A stretch of DNA of 64,000 nt from Alphaproteobacteria bacterium (GCA_965221125.1 CBDCRW010000006.1:416001-480000); one strand, 5' to 3'. Shown: positions 4,452-15,054, counted from the first letter of the stretch. Notes: generated by a model not told the origin, from the letters alone. Program-made: numbers and translations.

Positions 4452-5417
4452 ATGGCCGACCGGGTGCGGGCGCTGCCGGGCAGCGAAGCCGAGACGCGGG
4501 CGCTCCTCGAGGACGGGCGCTATGTCGCGGACGATGCGCTGGTCAAGACGCTGTTCCTGAGCTTCGCGCTGGGCCGCCCCCTGCTGCTGGAGGGCGAGGC
4601 CGGCTGCGGCAAGACGCAGCTCGCCGCGACCCTGGCGGAGACGCTCGGCCGCCGGCTGCTCCGCCTGCAATGCCACGAGGGGCTGGATTCGGCCGCTGCC
4701 GTCTACGAGTGGAACTATGCCGCGCAGATGCTGGCGATCCGCCTCGCCGAGCGCGGCGGCACTGCGCGCGACGGGACCGCGCGCGGTGAGACTGCGCGCG
4801 ACGCGCTGGCCGAGGACATCTTCGGCGAGCGCTTCCTGGTCAAGCGGCCGCTGCTCACGGCGCTGGAGCCCGATCCGCTCGGGCCCCCGGTCCTGCTGAT
4901 CGACGAGATCGACCGGGCCGACGCGCCCTTCGAGGCCTATCTGCTTGAAATCCTCTCCGAGTTTCAGGTGAGCGTGCCGGAGGTCGGCACGGTGACGGCT
5001 GCCGAGCGCCCGCTCGTCGTCATCACGTCCAACCGCACGCGCGAGGTGCACGACGCGCTCAAGCGGCGCTGCCTCTACCACTGGGTCGACTACCCGGATG
5101 CCGCGCAGGAGAAGGCGATCCTGCGCGCCCGCCTGCCGGGGGTCGAGAGGCGGCTGAGCGACAACATTACTGCCTTCATCGCGCGCATGCAGAAGGCCGA
5201 TCTCTCCAAAGTGGCGGGGCTCGGCGAGGTGATCGCGTGGTCGAGCGCCGTGATCGAGCTCGACCGCATCGAGCTCGACCCCGAGACGATCCAGGCCAAC
5301 CTCGAGCGGCTGCTGGCCTATCAGCGCGGTCTCGCCGAGGCCAGCGGCCGTGCGCCGGGGACTGTGCAGCCGGAGACCGTAAGGCCGGGGCCGGTGCGGC
5401 CGGGGCAGCGGCCGTGA
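4452..5417 (+). CDS. MoxR/CoxD-type AAA+ ATPase
   Basis: Walker [18 protein letters not shown], Walker [28 protein letters not shown]. Confidence 0.9.
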
Positions 5418-6619
5418 CCGCGGCGCAGGCGACGTTCGAGACGCAAGCGGGCGGCATGCTCGCCTACAACGTCATGCACTTCGTGCGGGGCCTGCGCGGC
5501 ACTGGCCTGCCGGCGGGGCCGGGCAAGACCATCGAGGCGGTGCGCGCGGTCGAGGCGGTCGATCCCACCCGGCGCAGCGACCTCTACTGGGCGCTCCACG
5601 CCGTGCTCGTGGAGCGGCGCGACCAGCACGACATCTTCGACCAGGCGTTTCACCTGTTCTGGCGCGAGATACGCATGCAGAGCGCGACCCACGGGCCGGT
5701 CATGGCGTCGGACAGGCTGCCGCAGCCGGAGGCGCCGCCGGCGAGCCGCCGGGCCAGCGAGGCCATCGCGCCCCGCCTGCCGGACGAGGAGGAGGAACAG
5801 GAAAACGTCGAGATCGAGCTCGACGCGGTGCTCACCTTCTCGCCCCAGGAAGTGCTGCAGGAGATGGATTTCGAGGACATGTCGGCGGACGAGCTGGCCG
5901 AGGCGAAGCGGGCGATCGCGGCGCTCCGGCTGCCGATCAAGCCGGTGCCGACGCGGCGCTTCCGGCCGGATCAGCTTGGGCGCAGGATCGACATGCGGGC
6001 GACGCTCCGCGCGAGTCTCCGCTCGAGCGGCGACCTCATGCCGCTCAAGCGCCGCTCCCGCGCCGAGCGCCTGCCGACGCTGGTGGTGCTCTGCGACGTG
6101 TCGGGCTCGATGAGCCGCTACTCGCGCATGTTCCTGCATTTCGTCCACGCCGTGACCAACGACCGCGACCGGGTGCACAGCTTCCTCTTCGGCACCCGGC
6201 TTACCAACATCACGCGCTATCTCCGGCACCGCGACGTGGACGTGGCCGTCGGCGCCGCGAGCAGCGCCGTCCACGACTGGTCCGGCGGCACGCGGATCGG
6301 CCCCTGCCTCAAGGACTTCAACCACCACTGGTCGCGCCGCGTGCTGGCCCAGGGCGCGCTGGTGCTGCTGATCACCGACGGGCTCGACCGCGACGATCTC
6401 GGCATCCTCCAGGCCGAGGTGGAGCGGCTGCACAAGTCCTGCCGCCGCCTGATCTGGCTCAACCCGCTACTCCGCTACGAGGGCTTCAGGCCCGAGGCCG
6501 GCGGCGTGCGCACCATCCTGCCGCATATCGACGACTTCCGGCCCGTCCACAACATCGCGAGCCTCATGGACATCGCGACCGCGCTGAGCGCGCCCGCGCC
6601 GGGCGAGGTGTGGGGTTAG
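5414..6619 (+). CDS. CoxE-type VWA-domain protein
   Basis: [33 protein letters not shown]; GTG start overlaps the AAA stop. Confidence 0.88.
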
Positions 6620-6840
6620 GAAACCCGCACCATGGTGCGGTGCACGGGGCAGGCAGGTGGGGGCAGGCTCTGCGGATGCAGCGCGAAGACCATCTGTTGT
6701 TTTCCGGTCTAGCCGGATAGAAGCACGGGTTTTTTTCTCACTTTGATTGGTTGGTGGATTTCCCGGGATGGTGGCCGAGTGCGGGAAGGACGCTGCCTGC
6801 GGCATTTTTTTGATCCTCAGCAGAATCCTCATTGCTGTTG

Positions 6841-6974
6841 AAGCTGTGGAGCGGTGGGCGCGAGATCGGCGAGTGTGGTCAGGCGGTGGGCAAGCGCCAG
6901 CTTGTCCACGGGCTGTCCACACGGTCCGCAGGACGCCGATCGGTCCGCAGGACGCGTCCACGGCTCCACAGCTT
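6841..6974. other. Long branched hairpin inside the transposon left end
   Basis: AAGCTGTGGAGC/GCTCCACAGCTT 12-bp stem with nested stems and two TCC-GCA-GGA mini-hairpins. Confidence 0.75.
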
Positions 6975-7063
6975 GGCGGCGGCGGGGAGCGTCCGTAATC
7001 TTGGCCTCTCACTGAACGACAAAGAGAGGCCCGGGGGACGGAACTCCCGCCGGGCCAGGGCCG

Positions 7064-7699
7064 GTGCAGCTTCGCTACGAAACGGGGCTCACCAGCGAGG
7101 AATACGTTAAGACCGAGGCGTGGCGCGACGCAAGGCTTGAGCGCTGCCCGAATCACCCGCACGGCGGATGTTCTGTGGCAAGCCACGGCACCTACGAGCG
7201 GAAGACCCCGCCCGGCGCAAGGGTTCCTCGCTGGTATTGCCGTGAGAGCCATACGACCATCGGCCTGCTGGCCGACTGTCTGGCGGCGCGGCTGCCGGGC
7301 ACGCTCGATGCGCTGGAAGCGGTTGTTGTCGTGGCGGAGGAGGCCGGCAGCCTGGAGGAGGCAGCGGACGAGGTGCGCTGCCCCGAGGACGAGGACGCCA
7401 TCGAGCTTCCCGGCGCCGTGCGTTGGATCCGCCGCAGGCTGAAGCTTGTGCACGACGCGCTTGTGCGCGTCATCGGCCTGATCCCCGACCTGCTCGCGGG
7501 CTGCGCGCCCACCATGAGCGCGGTGCGCGAGCGTCTGAAGAGCGACAGCGCGTTGATGGAACTGCGCGGCCTGGTCGCCGGGCAGCTCCGGACGCTACCC
7601 GCGCCTCTGGGCTTCCAACCCCACGGCATCGACGTGGGGAATCGCAAACCGCAGTTCCAACAACGGGCGGGGCCGGACCCGCCGCCGGAGAGTTCGTAG
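7064..7699 (+). CDS. Transposon-associated Cys/His-rich hypothetical protein (putative Zn-binding, possible HTH)
   Basis: CPNHPHGGC...HGTY...RWYC...H motif; GTG start; directly upstream of the transposase. Confidence 0.75.
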   Translation: MQLRYETGLTSEEYVKTEAWRDARLERCPNHPHGGCSVASHGTYERKTPPGARVPRWYCRESHTTIGLLADCLAARLPGTLDALEAVVVVAEEAGSLEEAADEVRCPEDEDAIELPGAVRWIRRRLKLVHDALVRVIGLIPDLLAGCAPTMSAVRERLKSDSALMELRGLVAGQLRTLPAPLGFQPHGIDVGNRKPQFQQRAGPDPPPESS

Positions 7700-7744
7700 C
7701 GTGACGATCCCGGGGCCAGGGAGTCCCTGAACGAGGATCGCACC

Positions 7745-9073
7745 ATGAACAGCTCAGACGACGACCTTCGCCAACAGATCGCGCTCTTCCGATACGACGT
7801 CATCGCCGATCTGGTGCATCTGCCCGTGGGTGCACCGGGTGCCGGCGCGATGATGCGCGCCAAAGCCGAGAAGACCTACACGATCCCCGGAACCACCAGG
7901 ACCCGGGTCGCCGCCGAGACCATGCGGCGCTGGATCAAGGACTACCGCTACGGCGGCTTCGACGCGCTCTACCCCAAGCCCCGCACCGACCGGGGGAAGC
8001 CCCGGCGGCTGCCGCCCGAGGTCGCCGAGCGCCTCATCGCGCTGAAGACCGAGAACGACGCATTGTCGGTTCGCGCCATCATCCAGAAGGTCAAGGAGGA
8101 GGGTATCGACCACCCGCTCGCCTCGTCCACCGTGCACCGCCTCTTCAGCCGCGAGGGCCTGTTCGACAAGAAGCCGCCCGACGGGGCGGATCGCCGCCGC
8201 TTCGCCTTCCGGCATGCCGGCGAGATGTGGATGAGCGACGTCATGCACGGACCCAAGGTCCGGCACGGCCGAACCCGGCGCAAGACCTACCTGATCGCCT
8301 TCATCGACGACGCCACCCGCGTCATCCCGTTCGCCGCCTTCGCCATGGCGGAGAACACTGCGGCGTTCCTGCCGGTGTTCAAGGACGCGCTGATCCGGCG
8401 CGGCCTCCCGGCCCGCTTGTACGTCGACAACGGAAGCGCCTACCGCTCCCGTCATCTCTCCCTGGTCTGCGCCAGGCTCGGCGTTGCGTTGATTCACGCA
8501 AGGGCGTTCCAGCCAGCGGGAAAGGGTAAGATCGAGCGCTTCTTCCGCACCCTCCGGGCCGGCTGGCTCCGCCACCTCGGCGATGACGTCGACAGCCTGG
8601 AGGCGCTCAACCGCAGCCTCTGGGCCTGGATCGAGGGGGAGTATCACAACAGCCCGCATCGTGGCCTCGACGAGGGGCGCACCCCGCTTGAGCAGTGGGC
8701 GCTGGCCTCGGCCGGCGTGCGCTATCCCGACGCCACCATGGACCTCGACGATCTGTTCCTCTTCGAGGCCAGGCGCCGTGTCTACAAGGACCGCACCGTT
8801 AGTCTGAACGGCCGCGTCTACGAGGTCGACGCCCTCCTGGTGGGTCAGAACGTCATCCTGCGCTACGACCCGGCCGCGCCGCCCTCGCGCCCTCTCGACG
8901 TGGTCCATGACGGCAAGCCGGCCGGCAAGGCCAGCCCTCTCGACGCCTACGCCAATACCGCCGTCAGGCGCACCTACCCGGCCAGGGAGATCGAGGCCGA
9001 AGATCCGGCGCCCGAGCCTCCGCCCTCGCCGCTGGCCATGCGCAACCTCAAGGACAAGAAGGAGGACGAGTGA
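7745..9073 (+). CDS. DDE transposase (rve/integrase core, Mu-transposase C-terminal type)
   Basis: N-terminal HTH; WMSD...FIDDATR...YVDNGSAY...GKIERFFRT catalytic D-D-E; C-terminal RRVYKDRTVSLNGRVYEV. Confidence 0.95.
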   Translation: MNSSDDDLRQQIALFRYDVIADLVHLPVGAPGAGAMMRAKAEKTYTIPGTTRTRVAAETMRRWIKDYRYGGFDALYPKPRTDRGKPRRLPPEVAERLIALKTENDALSVRAIIQKVKEEGIDHPLASSTVHRLFSREGLFDKKPPDGADRRRFAFRHAGEMWMSDVMHGPKVRHGRTRRKTYLIAFIDDATRVIPFAAFAMAENTAAFLPVFKDALIRRGLPARLYVDNGSAYRSRHLSLVCARLGVALIHARAFQPAGKGKIERFFRTLRAGWLRHLGDDVDSLEALNRSLWAWIEGEYHNSPHRGLDEGRTPLEQWALASAGVRYPDATMDLDDLFLFEARRRVYKDRTVSLNGRVYEVDALLVGQNVILRYDPAAPPSRPLDVVHDGKPAGKASPLDAYANTAVRRTYPAREIEAEDPAPEPPPSPLAMRNLKDKKEDE

Positions 9074-9873
9074 TGTACCTGCGCCACTTCGCCTTCACCC
9101 GCCTGCCCTTCGAGACCCCGGCAGAGACCGACGAGCTGTTCGAGTCCAACGCGCGCCGCGAGGCCGAGGCCAGGCTCGGCCACCTCATCGACCTGCGCGG
9201 CATCGGCCTGCTCACCGGCGAGGTGGGCTCCGGCAAGACCACCGTGTGCCGGCATCTGACCGCGCAGCTTCATCCAGGCCTCTACCGGGTCCACTACGTC
9301 TCGCTGACCACGGGCAACGTGCTCGACATGTACAAGGCGATCGCGTGGGAGATCGGCCTGCCCATCGAGCGCTCCCGCGCCTCGGCCTATCAGGCCATCC
9401 GAAACGAGATCTCCCGCCTCGTCACCGAGGCCAAGCAGCTGCCGGTCCTCGTCATCGACGAGGCCCATCATCTGCGCAACGACGTCCTTGAGGACCTGCG
9501 CCTGCTCACCAACTTCGCCATGGATGCAGAGCAGCGCCTGTGCCTCGTCCTCGTCGGTCTGACCGAGCTCAGGCGCCGCCTGGCCATGGCCATGCACGAA
9601 TCCCTCAGCCAGCGCCTCGTCGTCCGCCACCACCTGAGCGGTCTCGACCGCGACGAGGTCGACGCTTACATCAAGCACCGCCTCAGGCTCGCGGGATGCG
9701 AACTGCCGCTGTTCGAAGAGCCCGCCGTCGAGGCCCTGTTCCAGGGCGCGCGCGGCCTGCCGCGCCAGATCAACCGCATCGCCCACTACGCGCTCTCCGC
9801 CGCCGCTCTCGACGAGGCGAGGACCGTCAGTGCCGACCACCTGCAGCACGCGCTCGAGGAACTGCGGCCATGA
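9073..9873 (+). CDS. ExeA/TniB/TnsC-like AAA+ ATPase (transposition regulator)
   Basis: Walker A GEVGSGKT, Walker B VIDEAHHL, ESLSQRL, GLPRQIN; TGATG coupling to the transposase. Confidence 0.92.
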   Translation: MYLRHFAFTRLPFETPAETDELFESNARREAEARLGHLIDLRGIGLLTGEVGSGKTTVCRHLTAQLHPGLYRVHYVSLTTGNVLDMYKAIAWEIGLPIERSRASAYQAIRNEISRLVTEAKQLPVLVIDEAHHLRNDVLEDLRLLTNFAMDAEQRLCLVLVGLTELRRRLAMAMHESLSQRLVVRHHLSGLDRDEVDAYIKHRLRLAGCELPLFEEPAVEALFQGARGLPRQINRIAHYALSAAALDEARTVSADHLQHALEELRP

Positions 9874-10910
9874 CCGGCTTCCCGACCCGCGCCCCGATCG
9901 AGCTGGAGGAGCGGCCGCGCGAGCAGCAATGGCTGGTGGACACGCTATGGGGCGAGCAGGCCGTCGGCATCGTCGGCGGCGAGCCGAAGTGCGGCAAGTC
10001 CATCCTGGCGCTGGACCTCGCGGTCGCAGTCGCCGCCGGCGTCCCATGCCTGCGGCACTTCGCCCCGGCCCGGCCTGGCCCGGTCCTGCTGTTCGCCGCA
10101 GAAGACGCCGGCCACCTCGTGCGCAAGCGCCTGCAGGGGATCGCCCGCGCCGCAGGCGCCCGCTTCGAGACCCTCGACATCGCCGTCATCGACGTGCCCA
10201 CACTGCGCCTCGACCATCTCGACGACCGCCGCCGCCTGCAGCAGACCGTGGAGCGCATCGCACCGCGCCTCGTGGTCCTCGACCCCCTGGTCCGCCTGCA
10301 CGGCGTGGACGAGAACACGGTTGCGGACGTCGCCCCGATCCTCGGCTTCCTGCGCGACCTGCAACGCCGCTTCGAGACCGCCGTCCTCCTCGTCCACCAC
10401 GCCCGCAAGAGCGGGGCCACGAGGCCGGGGCAGGCCCTGCGGGGCAGCAGTGAGCTGCACGCCTGGGGGGACTCGAACCTCTACCTGCGCCGCCGGGACC
10501 GGCAGACCCTCATGACCGTCGAGCATCGCGCCGCACGCGGTCTCGACGACATCGAGATCGAGCTCAAGGAAGACGGAGAGGAGCCCTCCTTCCGGCTGCG
10601 CCAGCCGCCCACGGCCGGCGGCGGGGCGCCTCAGCCCGAAACACCCGAATGCCGCGTTCTCAAGGCGCTCGCCGACGCCGGGGCGCCGCTCTCGCAACGC
10701 CAGATCCGGGAACGCGCCGCGACCCGGCACAAGACCGTCGGCGTAATCTTGCAAAAGCTCGTCCAGGAGGGTCGCGTCGCGCGCAACGCCGAGGGCGGCT
10801 ACAGCGTCGTCGCAGGCGCAGCGGACAAGCGGGCGGCGGCCGCCGCCGCCAACGGCAGCAGTCGGCCGCAGGCCCCGCGGTTCCCGGAGCCCGGTTCCGC
10901 CAACGCCTAG
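9870..10910 (+). CDS. RecA-fold AAA_25/RepA-like ATPase (helicase-like) with C-terminal winged-HTH-like segment
   Basis: WLVDTLW, Walker A GEPKCGKS, FAAED, Walker B VVLDPL, LVHHARK, LRGSSELHAW; C-terminal LSQRQIRE...VILQKLVQEGRV; ATGA coupling. Confidence 0.85.
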   Translation: MTGFPTRAPIELEERPREQQWLVDTLWGEQAVGIVGGEPKCGKSILALDLAVAVAAGVPCLRHFAPARPGPVLLFAAEDAGHLVRKRLQGIARAAGARFETLDIAVIDVPTLRLDHLDDRRRLQQTVERIAPRLVVLDPLVRLHGVDENTVADVAPILGFLRDLQRRFETAVLLVHHARKSGATRPGQALRGSSELHAWGDSNLYLRRRDRQTLMTVEHRAARGLDDIEIELKEDGEEPSFRLRQPPTAGGGAPQPETPECRVLKALADAGAPLSQRQIRERAATRHKTVGVILQKLVQEGRVARNAEGGYSVVAGAADKRAAAAAANGSSRPQAPRFPEPGSANA

Positions 10911-11241
10911 GGGTTCGAGCCGGAACCGCCGTCGGGAACCACCCTTCCCCAACGGTCCGGAAGGCGCTGCGCCTCCACCGGGATACTACGTCAGGTGAGC
11001 GGCCAGTCCGTGGCCGGAAGCTTGCTTCAGGCCATGGCAGCACTTCGTCGTGTGGACGGTGGCGAGTCACCCGAAGGGCCGAAGCGAAGCGCAGGAGCGG
11101 CGCAGCCGCTTGACGCGCCGACGGCCGCGCGACACCTCGTCAGCTCTCCTCAAGCACCAGTCCAAACCTCAATCAGACAGCGACCCCGGACCGCCCGCAG
11201 AGACCATGAGCTCCTACGCTTCGATCCGGAAAAGACCGAGC

Positions 11242-11315
11242 AATCTGGGAAATCAGGGCAGCGATCACGTCAAATAATCTGGGAGATTCGGCGTCAAATA
11301 ACGTGCGAAACAACA
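11242..11315. repeat. Transposon right-end internal repeats (putative transposase binding sites)
   Basis: AATCTGGGA at 11242 and 11276; CGTCAAATAA at 11268 and 11292. Confidence 0.7.
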
Positions 11316-11410
11316 CCATCGCCCTTTCGGGGAAGTCGGGCCGGAGCGGCTCCGGGGGGCCGGCTCGCGGCCGGGCGCTCGGCCGGCGGGCTCCCGCCGC
11401 CGCCGGGACG

Positions 11411-11544
11411 GGCCAGCTTGGGCCACCATGAGCCGCCTTGGACCACTTTGGGCCACTTTGTGCCACTTTGTGCCACTTTGTGCCGCCCGTTTCGGACCAC
11501 TTTGGGCCACTTTGGACCGGCATAGACCGGAATAGGCCGGATTA
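11411..11544. repeat. 10-bp tandem repeat array (consensus KRCCACTTTG, degenerate at both ends)
   Basis: GACCACTTTG GGCCACTTTG TGCCACTTTG TGCCACTTTG...; about 13 units with one 4-nt phase shift. Confidence 0.9.
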
Positions 11545-11574
11545 AGGCCCTTCCGTGCAAAACGGCACCGCTCT

Positions 11575-12273
11575 TTACGCTTGTCGCTCGCGACAGCCGG
11601 ACGGGTTCGGCACGGAAATCCTGCCGGCGAGCCAGTCGTCGACGATGTCGGTGGCGGGCACGCCGGCGGCTTCGCTTGCGGAGAGCGCCTTAATCTCGAG
11701 CCAGGCGCTCACCAGCGCGTAGCCGAGGGCGTATCCCGCATGGCGCGGCCAATCGGGGTCGTCCTTGCGGCCGAACATCCAGTTGTCGTGCTCGTAGTCG
11801 TCCGCAGACAGGAGCGGGCGGGCGCGCTGCGCCATCCTCCCCAGAATCTCATCGTCGAGCGCCACCGCGTAGAAGGGCGTGGGCGCGCCGACCTCCTCCT
11901 CGAAGCACTGGGCCAGGCCTTCGCTGACGAAGCGGGCGCCCAGCGTGTACGCCTCGACGCCGCTGCGAAGCCGCGCCACATGGTGAATCTCGTGCGCCAG
12001 CGTCGCAAAGACCCTGTCGCAGCGCTCGGGGTCCTGCAGCCGGGGCGAGGCCGGGTCCACCGTGAGCGTGATGCGGCCGGGACCGTTCGCGCGGCCGCTG
12101 AGGCCCCACTCCCGCAGCACCCAGGGCTCGGGCGCCACGACGATATCGAGGCGGTCCAGTCGAATGTACTGCGCGATCTGCTCGTTCGCCGCTTCGAGCT
12201 CGCACATGACATCGTTTCTGAGCAGCGCCGGGATCTCGTCCATCGCATCCAGGAGAAGGATTTCGATCGTCAT
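11575..12273 (-). CDS. Predicted Zn-dependent protease (DUF2268-like)
   Basis: HExxH (AHEIHH), downstream SEGLA, GYALGY. Confidence 0.75.
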   Translation of the reverse strand: MTIEILLLDAMDEIPALLRNDVMCELEAANEQIAQYIRLDRLDIVVAPEPWVLREWGLSGRANGPGRITLTVDPASPRLQDPERCDRVFATLAHEIHHVARLRSGVEAYTLGARFVSEGLAQCFEEEVGAPTPFYAVALDDEILGRMAQRARPLLSADDYEHDNWMFGRKDDPDWPRHAGYALGYALVSAWLEIKALSASEAAGVPATDIVDDWLAGRISVPNPSGCRERQA

Positions 12274-12471
12274 GGCTCTCCCGGTCGGCGACGTCCCGAG
12301 CGCCGTCTGTAGCGAGCGGCCGGCGACAAAGATAATGCCGCGCGCGTCGACATCCATGCCGGGACGGCATTCCGCAAGGCCGCCGTGCCCTGCGGTGGCC
12401 CGTGCTTGCCATCGAAACCGGGGCGTGGAAGGTTTCGTCGCCGCGCGGGGAGCTACGGGACGGCGGATGAA

Positions 12472-12555
12472 TTGCAGAGCGTCGGTCTGGTGATATTCGA
12501 CTGCGACGGGGTCATCGCCGACAGCGAAGTTCTGAGCGCACGTGTCCTGGTCCGG
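12472..12555 (+). pseudogene. N-terminal remnant of a HAD-family hydrolase
   Basis: LVIFDCDGVIADSE (HAD motif I), after which recognisable sequence is lost within about 28 codons. Confidence 0.6.
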
Positions 12556-12608
12556 CGGGCCGCGCGAGGCCGTGGGCCGCTTCTTCGACGGCGTGGAGGC
12601 CTGATTCG

Positions 12609-13535
12609 ATGCTGCTTTGCTGCGGCGAAGCCCTGATCGACATGATCCCGATGCCGACCGCGTCGGGGCAGGAGGGCTACGTGCCGCACGTGGGCGGCGC
12701 GGTCTTCAACACCGCGATCGCGCTCGGCCGGCTCGGCGTGCAGACGGGCATGCTGACCGGGCTTTCCACCGATCTGTTCGGCCAGCAACTGATGGCGTCG
12801 CTTCACGCGAACCACGTGGACACGTCTCTGCTCGTCACCTCCGACCGTCACACCACGCTCGCCTTCGTGCAGCTCACGGACGGCCACGCCACCTACACCT
12901 TCTTCGACGAGAACTCGGCCGGGCGGATGCTGGGCCAGGGCGACATGCCCGCGCTGCCGGACGAGGTCAGCACCCTCTACTTCGGCGGCATCAGCCTGGT
13001 CTTCGAGCCCTGCGCCGAGGCCTACGCCGCGCTGCTGAAGCGCGAGGCGGCGGCTCGCGTCATCATGCTCGACCCCAACATCCGCCCGAGCTTCATCCGG
13101 GACATCAAGCGCTACCGCGACCGCCTGGACCGGATGATCGCGCTGGCCGACATTGTGAAGGTCTCGGACGAGGACCTGAACTGGATCTACCCCGGCCCGG
13201 AATCGCTCTCCGACAAGCTGGACTTCGTGCGCCGGGCCGGGCCATCCGTGGTGATCCTGACGCGGAGCGGGAGCGACGCGTCCGCGTTCCTGAAGGACGG
13301 CGCCGAGGTCTCGGTTCCGGTGGACCGCGTCGACGTCGTCGACACCATCGGCGCGGGCGACACCTTCAACGCGGGCGTGCTGGCCAAGCTCGCGGAGCTC
13401 GGGATGCTCGTGAAGGACTCGCTCGCCGCCATCGATCCGGAGCGGATGCGGGACGCCCTGCGCTTCGGCACGCGGGTCGCCGGGATCACCGTGTCCCGCG
13501 CAGGCGCTAACCCGCCGTGGCGGCACGAGCTTTGA
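12609..13535 (+). CDS. PfkB-family carbohydrate kinase (fructokinase-like)
   Basis: GEALIDM, GGAVFNTAIALGRLG, DPNIRP, DTIGAGDTFNAG. Confidence 0.9.
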   Translation: MLLCCGEALIDMIPMPTASGQEGYVPHVGGAVFNTAIALGRLGVQTGMLTGLSTDLFGQQLMASLHANHVDTSLLVTSDRHTTLAFVQLTDGHATYTFFDENSAGRMLGQGDMPALPDEVSTLYFGGISLVFEPCAEAYAALLKREAAARVIMLDPNIRPSFIRDIKRYRDRLDRMIALADIVKVSDEDLNWIYPGPESLSDKLDFVRRAGPSVVILTRSGSDASAFLKDGAEVSVPVDRVDVVDTIGAGDTFNAGVLAKLAELGMLVKDSLAAIDPERMRDALRFGTRVAGITVSRAGANPPWRHEL

Positions 13536-13590
13536 CCCGCGATCCTCCCCACGGTCATGGTGAGGATTGCCGGCTAAAGATCGACTGACC

Positions 13591-15054
13591 ATGGTTTCGC
13601 GAGTCATACCGGTCGAGCCGTTCGACTTCGTGGTCTTCGGCAGCACCGGCGATCTGGCGCGGCGCAAGCTGCTGCCCGCGCTCTACCGCCGCATGCTCGC
13701 AGGCCAGGCGCCGCAGGGCTCGCGCATCGTCGCCGTCGGCCGGCGGGACCTCGACGCGGACGGCTACCGCCGCATGGCCGAGGCGGCGCTCGGCGAGCAC
13801 GCGGGGCCGGGCGCGCTCGAGGCCGATCGGGCGGCGGCCTTCCTCGCCATGCTCGACTACGTGCGCGTCGATGCGGAGGGCGAGGGCGGCTGGGCCGCGC
13901 TAGCGGACACGCTCGACGGCTCGGCGCGCATGCGGGCCTTCTACCTCTCCGTGGCGCCGCGGCACTTCGGCCCGATCAGCGAGCGGCTGGCGGCGAGCGG
14001 ATGCCGCACGCCGGAGACGCGGTTGGTGGTCGAGAAGCCCTTCGGCCGCGACCTCGAGAGCGCGCAGGCGCTGAACCGCCGGCTCGCCACGCTCTTCGAC
14101 GAGCGCCAGATCTACCGGATCGACCACTACCTCGGAAAGGAGACGGTGCAGAACCTGATGGCGCTACGCTTCGCCAATGCGCTGTTCGAGCCGATCTGGA
14201 ACGCGCGCCACGTCGATCACGTGCAGATCACGGTTGCCGAGCGGGTGGGCATCGGCGGCCGGGGCGGCTACTACGACCGGAACGGCGCGCTGCGCGACAT
14301 GATGCAGAACCACCTGCTGCAGCTGCTCTGCCTGATCGCCATGGAGCCGCCCGGGCACTTCGAGCCGGATGCGGTGCGGGACGAGAAGCTCAAGGTGCTG
14401 CGCAGCCTGAAGCCGGTGGACGGGCTCGGCGACGTGGTGCGCGGCCAGTACCTGGGCGCAGGCGGCGAGGCGGGCTACCTGGAGGATGCGGAGAACCCCG
14501 CATCGCGCACCGAGAGCTTCGCGGCGCTCAAGGCGGAGGTCGCCAACTGGCGCTGGAACGGCGCGCCCTTCTACCTGCGCACCGGCAAGCGGCTCAGGGC
14601 GCGGATGTCCGAGATCGCCGTCGTCTTCAAGGACGCGCCGCATTCGATCTTTCCTGAGAGCGCGGGCGGCACGGGCGCCAACGTGCTGGCGATCAGGCTG
14701 CAGCCCGACGAGGGGATCACGCTGCGGCTCACGATCAAGGAGCCCGGCCCCGGCGGCATGCGGCTCTGCGAGGCGCCGCTCGACATGACCTTCGCCGAGA
14801 CCATGGGCGCGCAGGGGCTCACCATGCCGGACGCTTACGAGCGGCTGGTGATGGACGTGATCCGGGGCGACCAGACGCTGTTCATGCGGGGCGACGAGGT
14901 CGAGGCGGCGTGGCGCTGGATCGACCCGATCATCGCCGCGGCGGAGGTCGCGCCGGAGCGGCCGCAACCCTACGACAGCTATTCGTCCGGCCCCGAAGAC
15001 TCGCTGATGCTGATGCATCGGGACGGCCGGCGCTGGCGCGCGCTCGCCGCGTGA
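13591..15054 (+). CDS. zwf: Glucose-6-phosphate 1-dehydrogenase
   Basis: FGSTGDLARRKL, EKPFG, RIDHYLGKE, RDMMQNHLLQ, YLRTGKRL. Confidence 0.96.
   Translation: MVSRVIPVEPFDFVVFGSTGDLARRKLLPALYRRMLAGQAPQGSRIVAVGRRDLDADGYRRMAEAALGEHAGPGALEADRAAAFLAMLDYVRVDAEGEGGWAALADTLDGSARMRAFYLSVAPRHFGPISERLAASGCRTPETRLVVEKPFGRDLESAQALNRRLATLFDERQIYRIDHYLGKETVQNLMALRFANALFEPIWNARHVDHVQITVAERVGIGGRGGYYDRNGALRDMMQNHLLQLLCLIAMEPPGHFEPDAVRDEKLKVLRSLKPVDGLGDVVRGQYLGAGGEAGYLEDAENPASRTESFAALKAEVANWRWNGAPFYLRTGKRLRARMSEIAVVFKDAPHSIFPESAGGTGANVLAIRLQPDEGITLRLTIKEPGPGGMRLCEAPLDMTFAETMGAQGLTMPDAYERLVMDVIRGDQTLFMRGDEVEAAWRWIDPIIAAAEVAPERPQPYDSYSSGPEDSLMLMHRDGRRWRALAA

Follow-up and report, generated by a model that had tools for sequence, protein, structure and literature searches.

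The 64,000-nucleotide stretch of DNA analysed here (the window), from an Alphaproteobacteria bacterium (GCA_965221125.1, CBDCRW010000006.1:416001-480000), carries at 6695-11315 a 4621-bp element with the tips TGTTGTTT...AAACAACA, which is an autonomous DNA transposon that is active now or was active very recently. It encodes a Cys/His protein, a DDE transposase, an AAA+ ATPase and a RecA-fold ATPase (genes 1-4), and it is almost certain that this is a real, active transposon of a DUF6431 + DDE + AAA+ family. We infer that the element would move by replicative, Mu-like transposition aided by a helicase that it encodes itself, and we lean modestly towards this reading as a whole. The element, its target-site duplication and its genes (protein lengths in amino acids, aa; HTH, helix-turn-helix) are placed as follows.

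6690-6694, no strand: left copy of the target-site duplication, CCATC (from the sequence)
6695-11315, + strand: whole transposon, 4621 bp, with the tips given above (20 identical genomic copies; empty-site alignment)
7064-7699, + strand: gene 1, Cys/His protein, 211 aa, predicted divergent DUF6431 zinc ribbon and, after it, an HTH-like segment
7745-9073, + strand: gene 2, DDE transposase, 442 aa (Pfam HTH_32, rve, Mu-transpos_C)
9070-9873, + strand: gene 3, AAA+ ATPase, 267 aa (Pfam AAA_22)
9870-10910, + strand: gene 4, RecA-fold ATPase, 346 aa, ending in a MarR-like winged helix at about residues 259-313 (Pfam AAA_25, MarR_2)
11316-11320, no strand: right copy of the target-site duplication, CCATC (from the sequence)

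The host assembly (4.58 Mb, 7 contigs) was searched with the element by BLAST. The search returned 20 copies, all 100% identical over their aligned length, and the identity began and ended exactly at bases 6695 and 11315. Seventeen of the 20 copies were uninterrupted and three were split near one end by a 1453-bp insertion sequence (IS) of the IS256 family, and all four proteins were encoded by all 20 copies at ≥99% identity. Across the two junctions of the window copy the sequence reads CCATC, then TGTTGTTTTCC...GCGAAACAACA, then CCATC again. A perfect 5-bp duplication, different in sequence at each site, was found at 15 of the 20 copies; among the remaining copies, two had a 4-bp match, one matched at four of five bases and two had swapped flanks. 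No diverged paralogues of the element were found in the host genome. The window copy sits within one member of a dispersed repeat of about 320 bp, and the reconstructed empty site could be aligned, unbroken at the junction, with 15 or more paralogous copies of this repeat that are themselves uninterrupted. The perfect terminal inverted repeat is just 8 bp long, so it is not this repeat that excludes chance ends, but the 20 copies together with the relatives that have the same ends. The initial annotation had described a recently inserted and probably active transposon at 6690-11320, and the copies bear this out; in the span, both junctions and the CCATC duplication stood, and only the end had to be moved, the element stopping at 11315 and 11316-11320 being the duplication.

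Positions 1-2 of the duplication favoured C (10-14 of 20) and positions 4-5 favoured G (10-11 of 20), which gives a weak, symmetric CCNGG target preference; beyond it, the 20 insertion sites shared no flanking sequence. In the two copies with swapped flanks, C4:671960-676580 (- strand) and C4:716887-721507 (+ strand), which are inverted and 45 kb apart, the 5-bp flanks CGGGG/CCCTC are reciprocally exchanged, and this implies that the segment of about 45 kb between the two copies has been inverted. Such an inversion arises either by homologous recombination between the copies or in a single intramolecular replicative transposition event.

Part of the stretch was present in 20 of the 23 sequencing runs listed, eight of them labelled 'sponge metagenome' (three studies) and others 'marine metagenome'. 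Word depth in X1 was about 390-400 for contigs of the element and about 9-10 for contigs of the flanks, which fits a multicopy element and is not a copy number. RNA-library contigs (X18) covered 6695-7306, 8286-8456 and 11120-11317, such libraries being ones that may contain DNA. Contigs from X6 and X7 (sponge metagenome, two studies) joined 6688 to 11315 and skipped 4626 bases, that is, the element and one duplication, but they were not counted as empty-site evidence because the short sides of the joints measured 27 and 33 letters, the likeness was set at 90, and the site lies in a repeat of about 20 copies, so that paralogues are possible.

All four genes were intact on the + strand with no internal stops. 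Genes 2 and 3 overlap at GTGATG (9070-9075) and genes 3 and 4 at ATGA (9870-9873), so that genes 2-4 are translationally coupled. Both the four co-oriented genes without frameshifts and the coupling of the last three had been recognised in the initial annotation. It had also held that an element with these extra genes fits no named family, and this view was not upheld as it stood. Gene 1 had no match in Pfam and NCBIfam even at E 10, the PF20020 (DUF6431) model included, and the 120 best listed of its 1297 homologous clusters were all without a functional name. The alignment of homologues showed invariant C28, H31, C36, H41 and C59, a nearly invariant H63 and an invariant C-terminal LPxPLGF...GPDPP. 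Then, the gene 1 profile was compared by hhalign with five first-gene proteins of plasmid trios, four of which pass the DUF6431 Pfam model, the fifth, from Pandoraea, being the syntenic first gene. The match (97.7%, E 2.3e-12, 116 columns) covered the zinc ribbon and the HTH-like segment that follows it. In the ESM Atlas, 28 of 30 gene 1 matches were clusters with DUF6431 as the common Pfam family, and our reading of gene 1 is that of a probable distant, divergent DUF6431 member.

The gene 2 protein matched rve (E 1.2e-10) and Mu-transpos_C (E 1.7e-7) in Pfam, both past the cut-offs, and its best NCBIfam model was IS481 (NF033577), with 201.9 bits against a cut-off of 224. Its best solved relative in the PDB was TnsB of a type V-K CRISPR-associated transposon (E 5e-7) and its best phage family was the Mu-type transposase phrog_310 (E 3e-49). 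The motif positions point to D165, D228 and E264 as the catalytic triad. Gene 3 matched AAA_22 (E 5.7e-27) and, weakly, TniB (E 2.9e-4) in Pfam, and has a Walker A motif GEVGSGKT at residue 50 and a Walker B motif VLVIDEAH at residue 126. Its best phage family was phrog_296, 'DNA transposition protein' (E 1.4e-29), the solved MuB structure 8xvb was matched at E 1e-3, and stand-alone ExeA-like ATPases are also near it; it is probably an analogue of MuB/TnsC/TniB. PADLOC gave weak TnsB and TnsC matches. In keeping with the initial annotation, which had seen no resolvase and no TniQ, no TniQ was found by Pfam in gene 1 (E≤10) or in genes 2-4 (E≤0.01), and no TnsA or resolvase/recombinase domains were found in the four proteins by Pfam and NCBIfam.

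The nearest plasmid relatives of the transposase had 35-40% identity (E 1e-50 to 1e-77). In five of six plasmid records opened, a small protein precedes the transposase in the same position, annotated as 'DUF6431 domain-containing' in Cupriavidus, Acidithiobacillus, Streptomyces and Geobacillus and as 'hypothetical' in Pandoraea; the Mycobacterium record has no first gene annotated. An AAA or 'ExeA family' ATPase is annotated after the transposase in five of the six, and the homologue that the Acidithiobacillus record does not list was found by tblastn. The transposase of the Geobacillus trio is annotated as IS481 family. The DUF6431 + DDE + AAA+ trio is widespread, occurring at greater distance on plasmids of Proteobacteria, Actinobacteria and Bacillota, and it is annotated only generically in databases. 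More distant plasmid matches were, at 21-29% identity, staphylococcal and other 'Mu transposase C-terminal domain-containing' proteins and, at 22-28%, true IS481-family transposases. On these comparisons the element falls in a distinct clade between the IS481 and the Tn552/Mu/Tn7 transposases. The suggestion in the initial annotation of a possibly undescribed class was too strong, since the trio already stands on plasmids under generic names, and the element is an uncharacterised family within the known Mu/Tn7/Tn552 kind rather than a new class. The literature searched, with ISfinder and TnCentral outside its scope, held no description of the trio or of a helicase- or primase-bearing DDE transposon.

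A scan of 185,579 species genomes with gene 1 patterns returned 79 loci, all from metagenome-assembled genomes (MAGs) of about nine phyla, the taxa including Alpha- and Gammaproteobacteria, Dehalococcoidia, Acidimicrobiales, Acidobacteriota, Gemmatimonadota, Spirochaetia, a cyanobacterium and a myxobacterium; the same patterns found no relative in IMG/VR. The ordered set of genes 1, 2 and 3 was intact at 56 of the 79 loci, which include several copies per genome and hence are not independent. When copies within a genome were compared, the ends read TGT(T/A)G...C(T/A)ACA in eight of nine genome groups, and such tips were not found in the ninth, a Spirochaetia MAG with a truncated transposase gene. 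Perfect 5-bp duplications flanked the tips at 32 related loci in 12 other assemblies. Three-gene relatives measured 3381-3852 bp and four-gene relatives 4178-4492 bp, and one of 7106 bp carried an insertion. Near-identical elements were present in MAGs of different phyla, the branch lengths between alphaproteobacterial and acidobacterial/gemmatimonadetal copies being 0.015-0.06 for the two tree proteins, which suggests frequent horizontal transfer among phyla, to which mis-binned repeat contigs could contribute.

The 7106-bp element (6602-13707), from a Candidatus Rariloculaceae MAG, has two copies (L077 and L078) that are 99.99% identical, each with its own 5-bp duplication, and has an insertion of about 3.3 kb within the transposase gene. 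The element seems to have transposed while already carrying this insertion, which is perhaps a self-splicing intron; alternatively, mobilisation in trans may have occurred.

For the ends, a weight matrix was made from 26 termini of 13 elements, and the scan with it omitted the four tip bases. The predicted sites and the repeats in the untranslated left region are given below.

6695-6720, + strand: L1, predicted transposase-binding site including the TGTTG tip, weight-matrix score 17.4
6729-6754, + strand: L2, predicted subterminal site at element position 35, oriented as L1, score 15.8
6841-6862 and 6953-6974, no strand: arms of the 22-nt inverted repeat I6, 91% complementary, 90 nt apart (repeat search)
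6923-6936 and 6942-6955, no strand: GGTCCGCAGGACGC, twice in direct orientation, left untranslated region (from the sequence)
11232-11257, - strand: R3, weak predicted right subterminal site, score 6.9
11266-11291, - strand: R2, predicted right subterminal site, 24 bp inward of the tip, score 13.7
11290-11315, - strand: R1, predicted right terminal site including the CAACA tip, score 20.9

The left site at position 35 was within the eight best matches in 10 of the 13 elements scanned, and the right site 24 bp from the tip in 12 of the 13. At the R3 position the score was 6.0-12.3 in six other elements and 14.3 in L077. Across the 13 elements the internal predicted sites thus lie at conserved places, on the left at 35 and, often inverted, at 99, and on the right at 24 and 58 bp from the tip. 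The ends appear to be asymmetric, with several predicted transposase-binding sites each, and asymmetric multi-site ends are given as a hallmark of Mu, Tn7, Tn5053 and Tn552 in the accessible part of PMC8649781. The direct copies of GGTCCGCAGGACGC lie between the arms of the inverted repeat, the second copy overlapping the right arm, and these repeats could be an operator or an RNA structure. Within 6400-11700, no Rfam family was matched at E≤1 and no sigma-70-like promoter was found, and the right non-coding region showed no conserved small open reading frame and no frame-specific conservation.

Two other repeats of the host genome touch the element. The IS256-family element (NCBIfam IS256, 343 bits, cut-off 150) has 14 identical genome copies, for example C7:276233-277685, and none in the window. 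The copies inside transposon ends occupy element positions 172-179, 4557-4564 (predicted site R3) and about 4528-4541. A further three are no more than 1.5 kb from a transposon copy, and the IS may prefer the transposon ends or their neighbourhood. The dispersed intergenic repeat of about 320 bp, which occupies about 6624-6694 and 11321-11575 of the window, was found at 20 or more host loci with 70-91% identity. It holds arrays of a 10-bp unit, GKGCCACTTT, with 10.2 units here in a tandem array at 11410-11515. A two-unit pattern of it gave 44 matches in the genome and 0 in the reversed control, and for about 4 of the 20 or so arrays a transposon copy is found no more than about 5 kb away. A miniature inverted-repeat transposable element (MITE)-like element or a protein-binding array are candidates for what this repeat is.

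Gene 4, which the initial annotation had correctly taken for a RecA-fold ATPase with an HTH domain, matched AAA_25 (E 9.4e-37) and MarR_2 (E 2.5e-5) in Pfam, with a Walker A motif GEPKCGKS at residue 37 and a Walker B motif LVVLDPL at residue 134. Its best solved relative in the PDB was the hexameric replicative helicase RepA of RSF1010 (residues 32-196, E 9.6e-10). Its PHROG matches were primase/helicase and DnaB-like families, the match lying in the helicase part of phage primase-helicases. A Foldseek search with a model of predicted local distance difference test (pLDDT) score 56.7 returned KaiC, DnaB, RadA and RepA, which confirms only the RecA-superfamily fold, and the highest target-normalised template modelling (TM) scores among the listed matches were those of RepA, 0.56-0.59. 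Walker A, Walker B and many other columns were invariant over 21 homologues of 70-100% identity, which points to strong purifying selection on the gene. The gene 4-like family comprised 478 clusters at 50% identity (E≤1e-30), and 9 of 10 longer relatives scanned had N-terminal extensions that were unknown or of MerR type. A tblastn search of the plasmid collection with gene 4 gave no match at E 1e-5. We describe gene 4 as a RepA/DnaB-like RecA-fold ATPase with a winged helix, helicase activity being predicted from homology. One metagenome protein, P0124 (597 aa, 92% identical to gene 4), is an AAA_22-AAA_25 fusion. The fusion may be genuine, or an error in sequencing the ATGA overlap may have produced it; as a single sequence it was not counted as evidence of interaction.

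The same domain make-up could also be read as that of a target selector or regulator, in which the winged helix would bind specific DNA and the RecA-fold ATPase would act as a switch, in a TniQ/TnsD/TnsE- or repressor-like role. C-terminal winged helices of the MarR/GntR/IclR type are typical of transcription factors, the RecA-fold family includes non-helicase switches such as KaiC, the direct and inverted repeats upstream of gene 1 are a possible operator, and the family functions without gene 4, as would be expected for a modulator. But the 20 sites share just the weak CCNGG and no common flanks (the four-gene element alone was compared), the best sequence matches of gene 4 are replicative helicases and primase-helicases, and among the distant relatives described below a DnaG-type primase joins the helicase in one lineage and a Toprim gene replaces it in another, which speaks for replication over targeting. 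We consider a selector or regulator unlikely.

Gene 4 is not constant in the family. It follows in 16 of the 56 intact relatives, is absent in 34 (with more than 1.2 kb following) and was left undecided by the script in 6, and it was absent from all six plasmid trios inspected. The initial annotation had proposed to examine in homologous loci if conserved ends enclose all four genes, and gene 4 proved not to be universal in the family. In a tree of transposase and ATPase (34 rows), the four-gene elements fell within a derived 15-row clade, in which 11 rows had gene 4 and 4 did not, so that at least two changes are needed. On this tree gene 4 lies outside the minimal machinery.

Distant relatives were sought in 400 genomes of the same class and 400 genomes of the same phylum. 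The class sample gave one contig (L122) in which a canonical DUF6431 gene is followed, in the same order, by genes for a transposase and an ATPase, at 35% and about 35% identity, and by an AAA_25 gene at 49%. In the phylum sample, three genomes of one family (L127-L129) had a transposase (29%), an ATPase (31%) and an AAA_25 gene (41-44%), also in the same order, and the two complete copies of the AAA_25 protein had a tail of winged-helix length. The helicase gene of L127 is followed by one for 370 aa with the domains Zn_ribbon_DnaG (E 6.7e-12) and Toprim_2 (E 8.2e-10), which overlaps the last 200 nt or so of the helicase gene. A Paracoccaceae MAG (L071-L074) held four copies of a 4178-bp relative, for example L073:6743-10920, in which a primase-like gene with DUF3991 and Toprim domains takes the fourth slot. 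Ten transposon-linked AAA_25 proteins formed one group against 21 other AAA_25 proteins from the same query (SH-like approximate likelihood ratio test, SH-aLRT, 96), and gene 4 has kept its place and direction in three lineages between which transposase identity is down to 29-35%. Since the transposon-linked helicases are monophyletic and their distribution on the transposase tree is scattered, a dedicated helicase lineage appears to have been exchanged among, or repeatedly lost from, members of the superfamily. In a survey of the phylum, 227 of 401 genomes had a match to the gene 3 profile, stand-alone ExeA-like ATPases included, and a transposase was adjacent in just two (L130, L131) of the 20 best short-frame places; because the profile also matches these stand-alone ATPases, the survey gave no denominator for the helicase frequency.

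The five-gene order in this distant family (L127:1-5273, and L128) is a Cys/His protein, transposase, AAA_22, AAA_25 and a Zn_ribbon_DnaG + Toprim primase-like protein, with the left tip TGTTACGC. The L127 and L128 copies diverge past the last stop codon, where one contig ends. The first gene of this lineage was considered as a DUF6431 member and rejected: its Cys/His order is similar, yet the probability against either DUF6431 profile was below 1%.

On this distribution gene 4 might be a passenger that takes no part in transposition, such as what is left of the replication module of a plasmid or island. Its absence from 34 of the 56 intact loci and all six plasmid trios inspected, its scatter on the transposase tree and the homologues in non-transposon contexts (L120, L121) would agree with this. 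Against it stand the strong purifying selection, the overlap at ATGA that joins it to gene 3, an unchanged place and direction in three lineages with transposases only 29-35% identical, the monophyly of the transposon-linked forms, the lack of any match to PADLOC defence models and the fact that the elements hold no other cargo whatever. A mere passenger is, on balance, very unlikely, and gene 4 is better described as an accessory module of some lineages than as ordinary cargo.

The reading that we favour, Mu-like replicative transposition with an element-encoded helicase, would run as follows. The transposase would bind L1/L2 and R1-R3, nick the CA-3' tips and join them to a target staggered by 5 bp, with the weak CCNGG preference. 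The AAA+ protein, MuB- or TnsC-like, would coat or mark the target DNA and activate the transposase, and the DUF6431 protein would be a DNA-binding accessory factor in end or target recognition or in regulation. This division of labour among transposase, ATPase and accessory protein, by analogy with Mu/Tn7, is very probable. Because no TnsA-like second nuclease is encoded, the 5' ends would stay attached, and the branched strand-transfer product would then need to be replicated in a Mu-like copy-and-paste. The inverted pair of copies 45 kb apart with exchanged duplications is consistent with this route, and we regard a replicative pathway as probable. Gene 4 would form a hexameric helicase, brought onto the intermediate either through its winged helix or by the transposition complex, and would unwind the element for copying by the host polymerase, a primase assisting in some relatives; a helicase-bearing element would then be less dependent on the host replication-restart proteins. 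Such a role of gene 4 as the replication helicase for transposition is plausible, if just short of probable.

A different route to a copy would be copy-out/paste-in by way of a double-stranded circle, as in IS3-type elements, with the helicase (and primase) replicating the element out or briefly maintaining an episome, and the winged helix recognising an internal origin. The transposase core is nearest to IS481 (201.9 bits), the TGTTG tip matches an IS481-family inverted repeat in the accessible part of PMC6794481, and IS481 is related to IS3 according to the part available of PMC10045372. Small replicons, too, combine a primase with a helicase fused to an origin-binding winged helix; in an island, a homologous AAA_25 + HTH_IclR protein (L121) adjoins a tyrosine integrase, and a circle needs no resolvase, of which the element has none. 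In contrast, the MuB/TnsC-like ATPase, the Mu-type C-terminal barrel and the asymmetric multi-site ends are hallmarks of Mu/Tn7 strand transfer. To our knowledge these are not known in IS3/IS481 elements. As a weak further point, no end-to-end circle junction was found among the 15 joints listed of 31 in four runs, contigs being prone to drop rare forms. A circular intermediate therefore seems quite improbable to us.

Several points weigh against the replicative, helicase-aided reading. Gene 4 is dispensable for the mobility of the family, the elements without it being multicopy with fresh duplications. The helicase-bearing elements are scattered on a 26-row transposase tree, on which well-supported branches force at least three changes, and the tree is compatible with repeated gain of gene 4 as cargo. 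The ATPase family to which gene 4 is homologous is broad and includes non-helicases such as KaiC and RadA, and the single-chain model of gene 4 is poor to mediocre (pLDDT 56.7), while that of gene 1, from 19 close homologues, reached pLDDT 39.5, too poor for a fold search; the functions of all four proteins are predicted from homology and context. The exchanged flanks are equally well explained by ordinary homologous recombination between two copies, and the orientation of the 20 copies showed no bias against GC skew. Replicative elements of the Mu/Tn7 kind usually carry a resolvase, according to the parts available of PMC8649781 and bioRxiv 10.1101/2024.11.13.623437, but this element has none, and the top IS481 score of the transposase core could mean a circular instead of a Mu-type intermediate.

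In its widest form the helicase-aided reading would say that a widespread Mu-like superfamily has recruited its own primosome parts, namely a RepA-like helicase clade and sometimes a DnaG-type or DUF3991-Toprim primase, which start the replication of its own strand-transfer intermediate in place of the host restart proteins. We put this forward tentatively, as a possible but rather doubtful generalisation. If true, the element would count as a partly 'self-replicating' DDE transposon of bacteria, and the recruited parts may explain how near-identical elements thrive across phyla in sponge microbiomes; no described parallel was found in the literature searched.

If the reading is right, the element is a compact (3.4-4.6 kb), cargo-free and highly active relative of Mu/Tn7 with a simple and probably loose target preference. 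The initial annotation had named it the best candidate for a new system in the window, and to single it out as the most interesting mobile element there is reasonable. Synteny ties the DUF6431 proteins, a family of unknown function, to transposition. That helicase and primase genes recur suggests that certain replicative transposons carry along some of the machinery for loading the replisome, which, if true, bears on the escape from host restart pathways and on the crossing of phylum boundaries. The 20 identical 4.6-kb copies and the 14 identical IS256-family copies make for a rearrangement-prone genome, in which one inversion signature was seen, and such identical repeats explain the fragmented short-read assemblies of symbionts of this sort.

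Among known systems, Mu (MuA + MuB) resembles the element in pairing a DDE transposase that has a Mu-type C-terminal barrel with an AAA+ activator of target DNA, as well as in TG...CA tips and several binding sites per end, predicted ones in the element. The Mu duplication is 5 bp, like that of the element, and the element has, as in Mu, no second nuclease, hence a replicative route would be expected. It differs from Mu in being 4.6 kb long and no phage, in its 442-aa transposase with an IS481-like core and in the extra DUF6431 protein. A further difference is the RepA-like ATPase that the element brings itself, where Mu depends on host restart proteins.

With Tn7-like elements and Tn5053/Tn402 it shares a TnsB-like transposase, by remote similarity, and an AAA+ regulator. 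An AAA+ regulator and arrays of sites of about 20 bp at both ends are given as Tn7-like hallmarks in the part of PMC8649781 available; by the definition in the same part, a TniQ/TnsD selector is absent here, and TnsA or a resolvase is absent from the four proteins. 'TnsBC elements', in the available part of a Peters laboratory preprint (bioRxiv 10.1101/2024.11.13.623437), have no TnsA/TniQ and are held to be replicative, some with 5-bp duplications. Unlike Tn7-like elements, ours has no TniQ/TnsD, TnsA, resolvase or cargo, and it has an upstream DUF6431 gene and, in the family, downstream helicase/primase genes. Tn552 (p480 + p271) shares the two-protein core of DDE transposase and ATPase, and staphylococcal 'Mu transposase C-terminal domain-containing' proteins were the commonest plasmid matches (408 of 1037 records), but identity is just 21-23% in full-length matches and up to 27% in the C-terminal third. 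Tn552 carries a resolvase and resistance cargo, and the element has neither.

IS481 gave the best NCBIfam model for the transposase core, and the TGTTG tip of the element matches the TnRErm46/ISRe46 inverted repeat, TGTTGCGG..., in the part of PMC6794481 available. Classical IS481 members are described in that part as having one gene and a 6-bp NCTAGN duplication. The transposase of the element misses the family cut-off of NF033577 (201.9 against 224). We know of no AAA+ partner and no Mu-type C-terminal domain in classical IS481 members. IS21 (IstA + IstB) shares a DDE transposase with a downstream AAA+ helper, but the IS21 model NF033546 gave 43.1 bits against a cut-off of 160 for the transposase, and IstB_IS21 was not among the 17 Pfam matches of gene 3. 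RepA of RSF1010 and phage primase-helicases share with gene 4 the RecA-fold core, Walker A/B motifs and, for RepA, the match at E 9.6e-10, and gene 4 differs in having a C-terminal winged helix and in sitting within a DDE transposon. Taken against the Mu/Tn7/Tn552 kind, to whose group the initial annotation had rightly assigned it, the element has a DDE transposase with rve and Mu-transpos_C domains and a Mu-type barrel, an adjacent AAA+ ATPase, TG...CA tips, asymmetric predicted sites and short fixed duplications, mostly of 5 bp.

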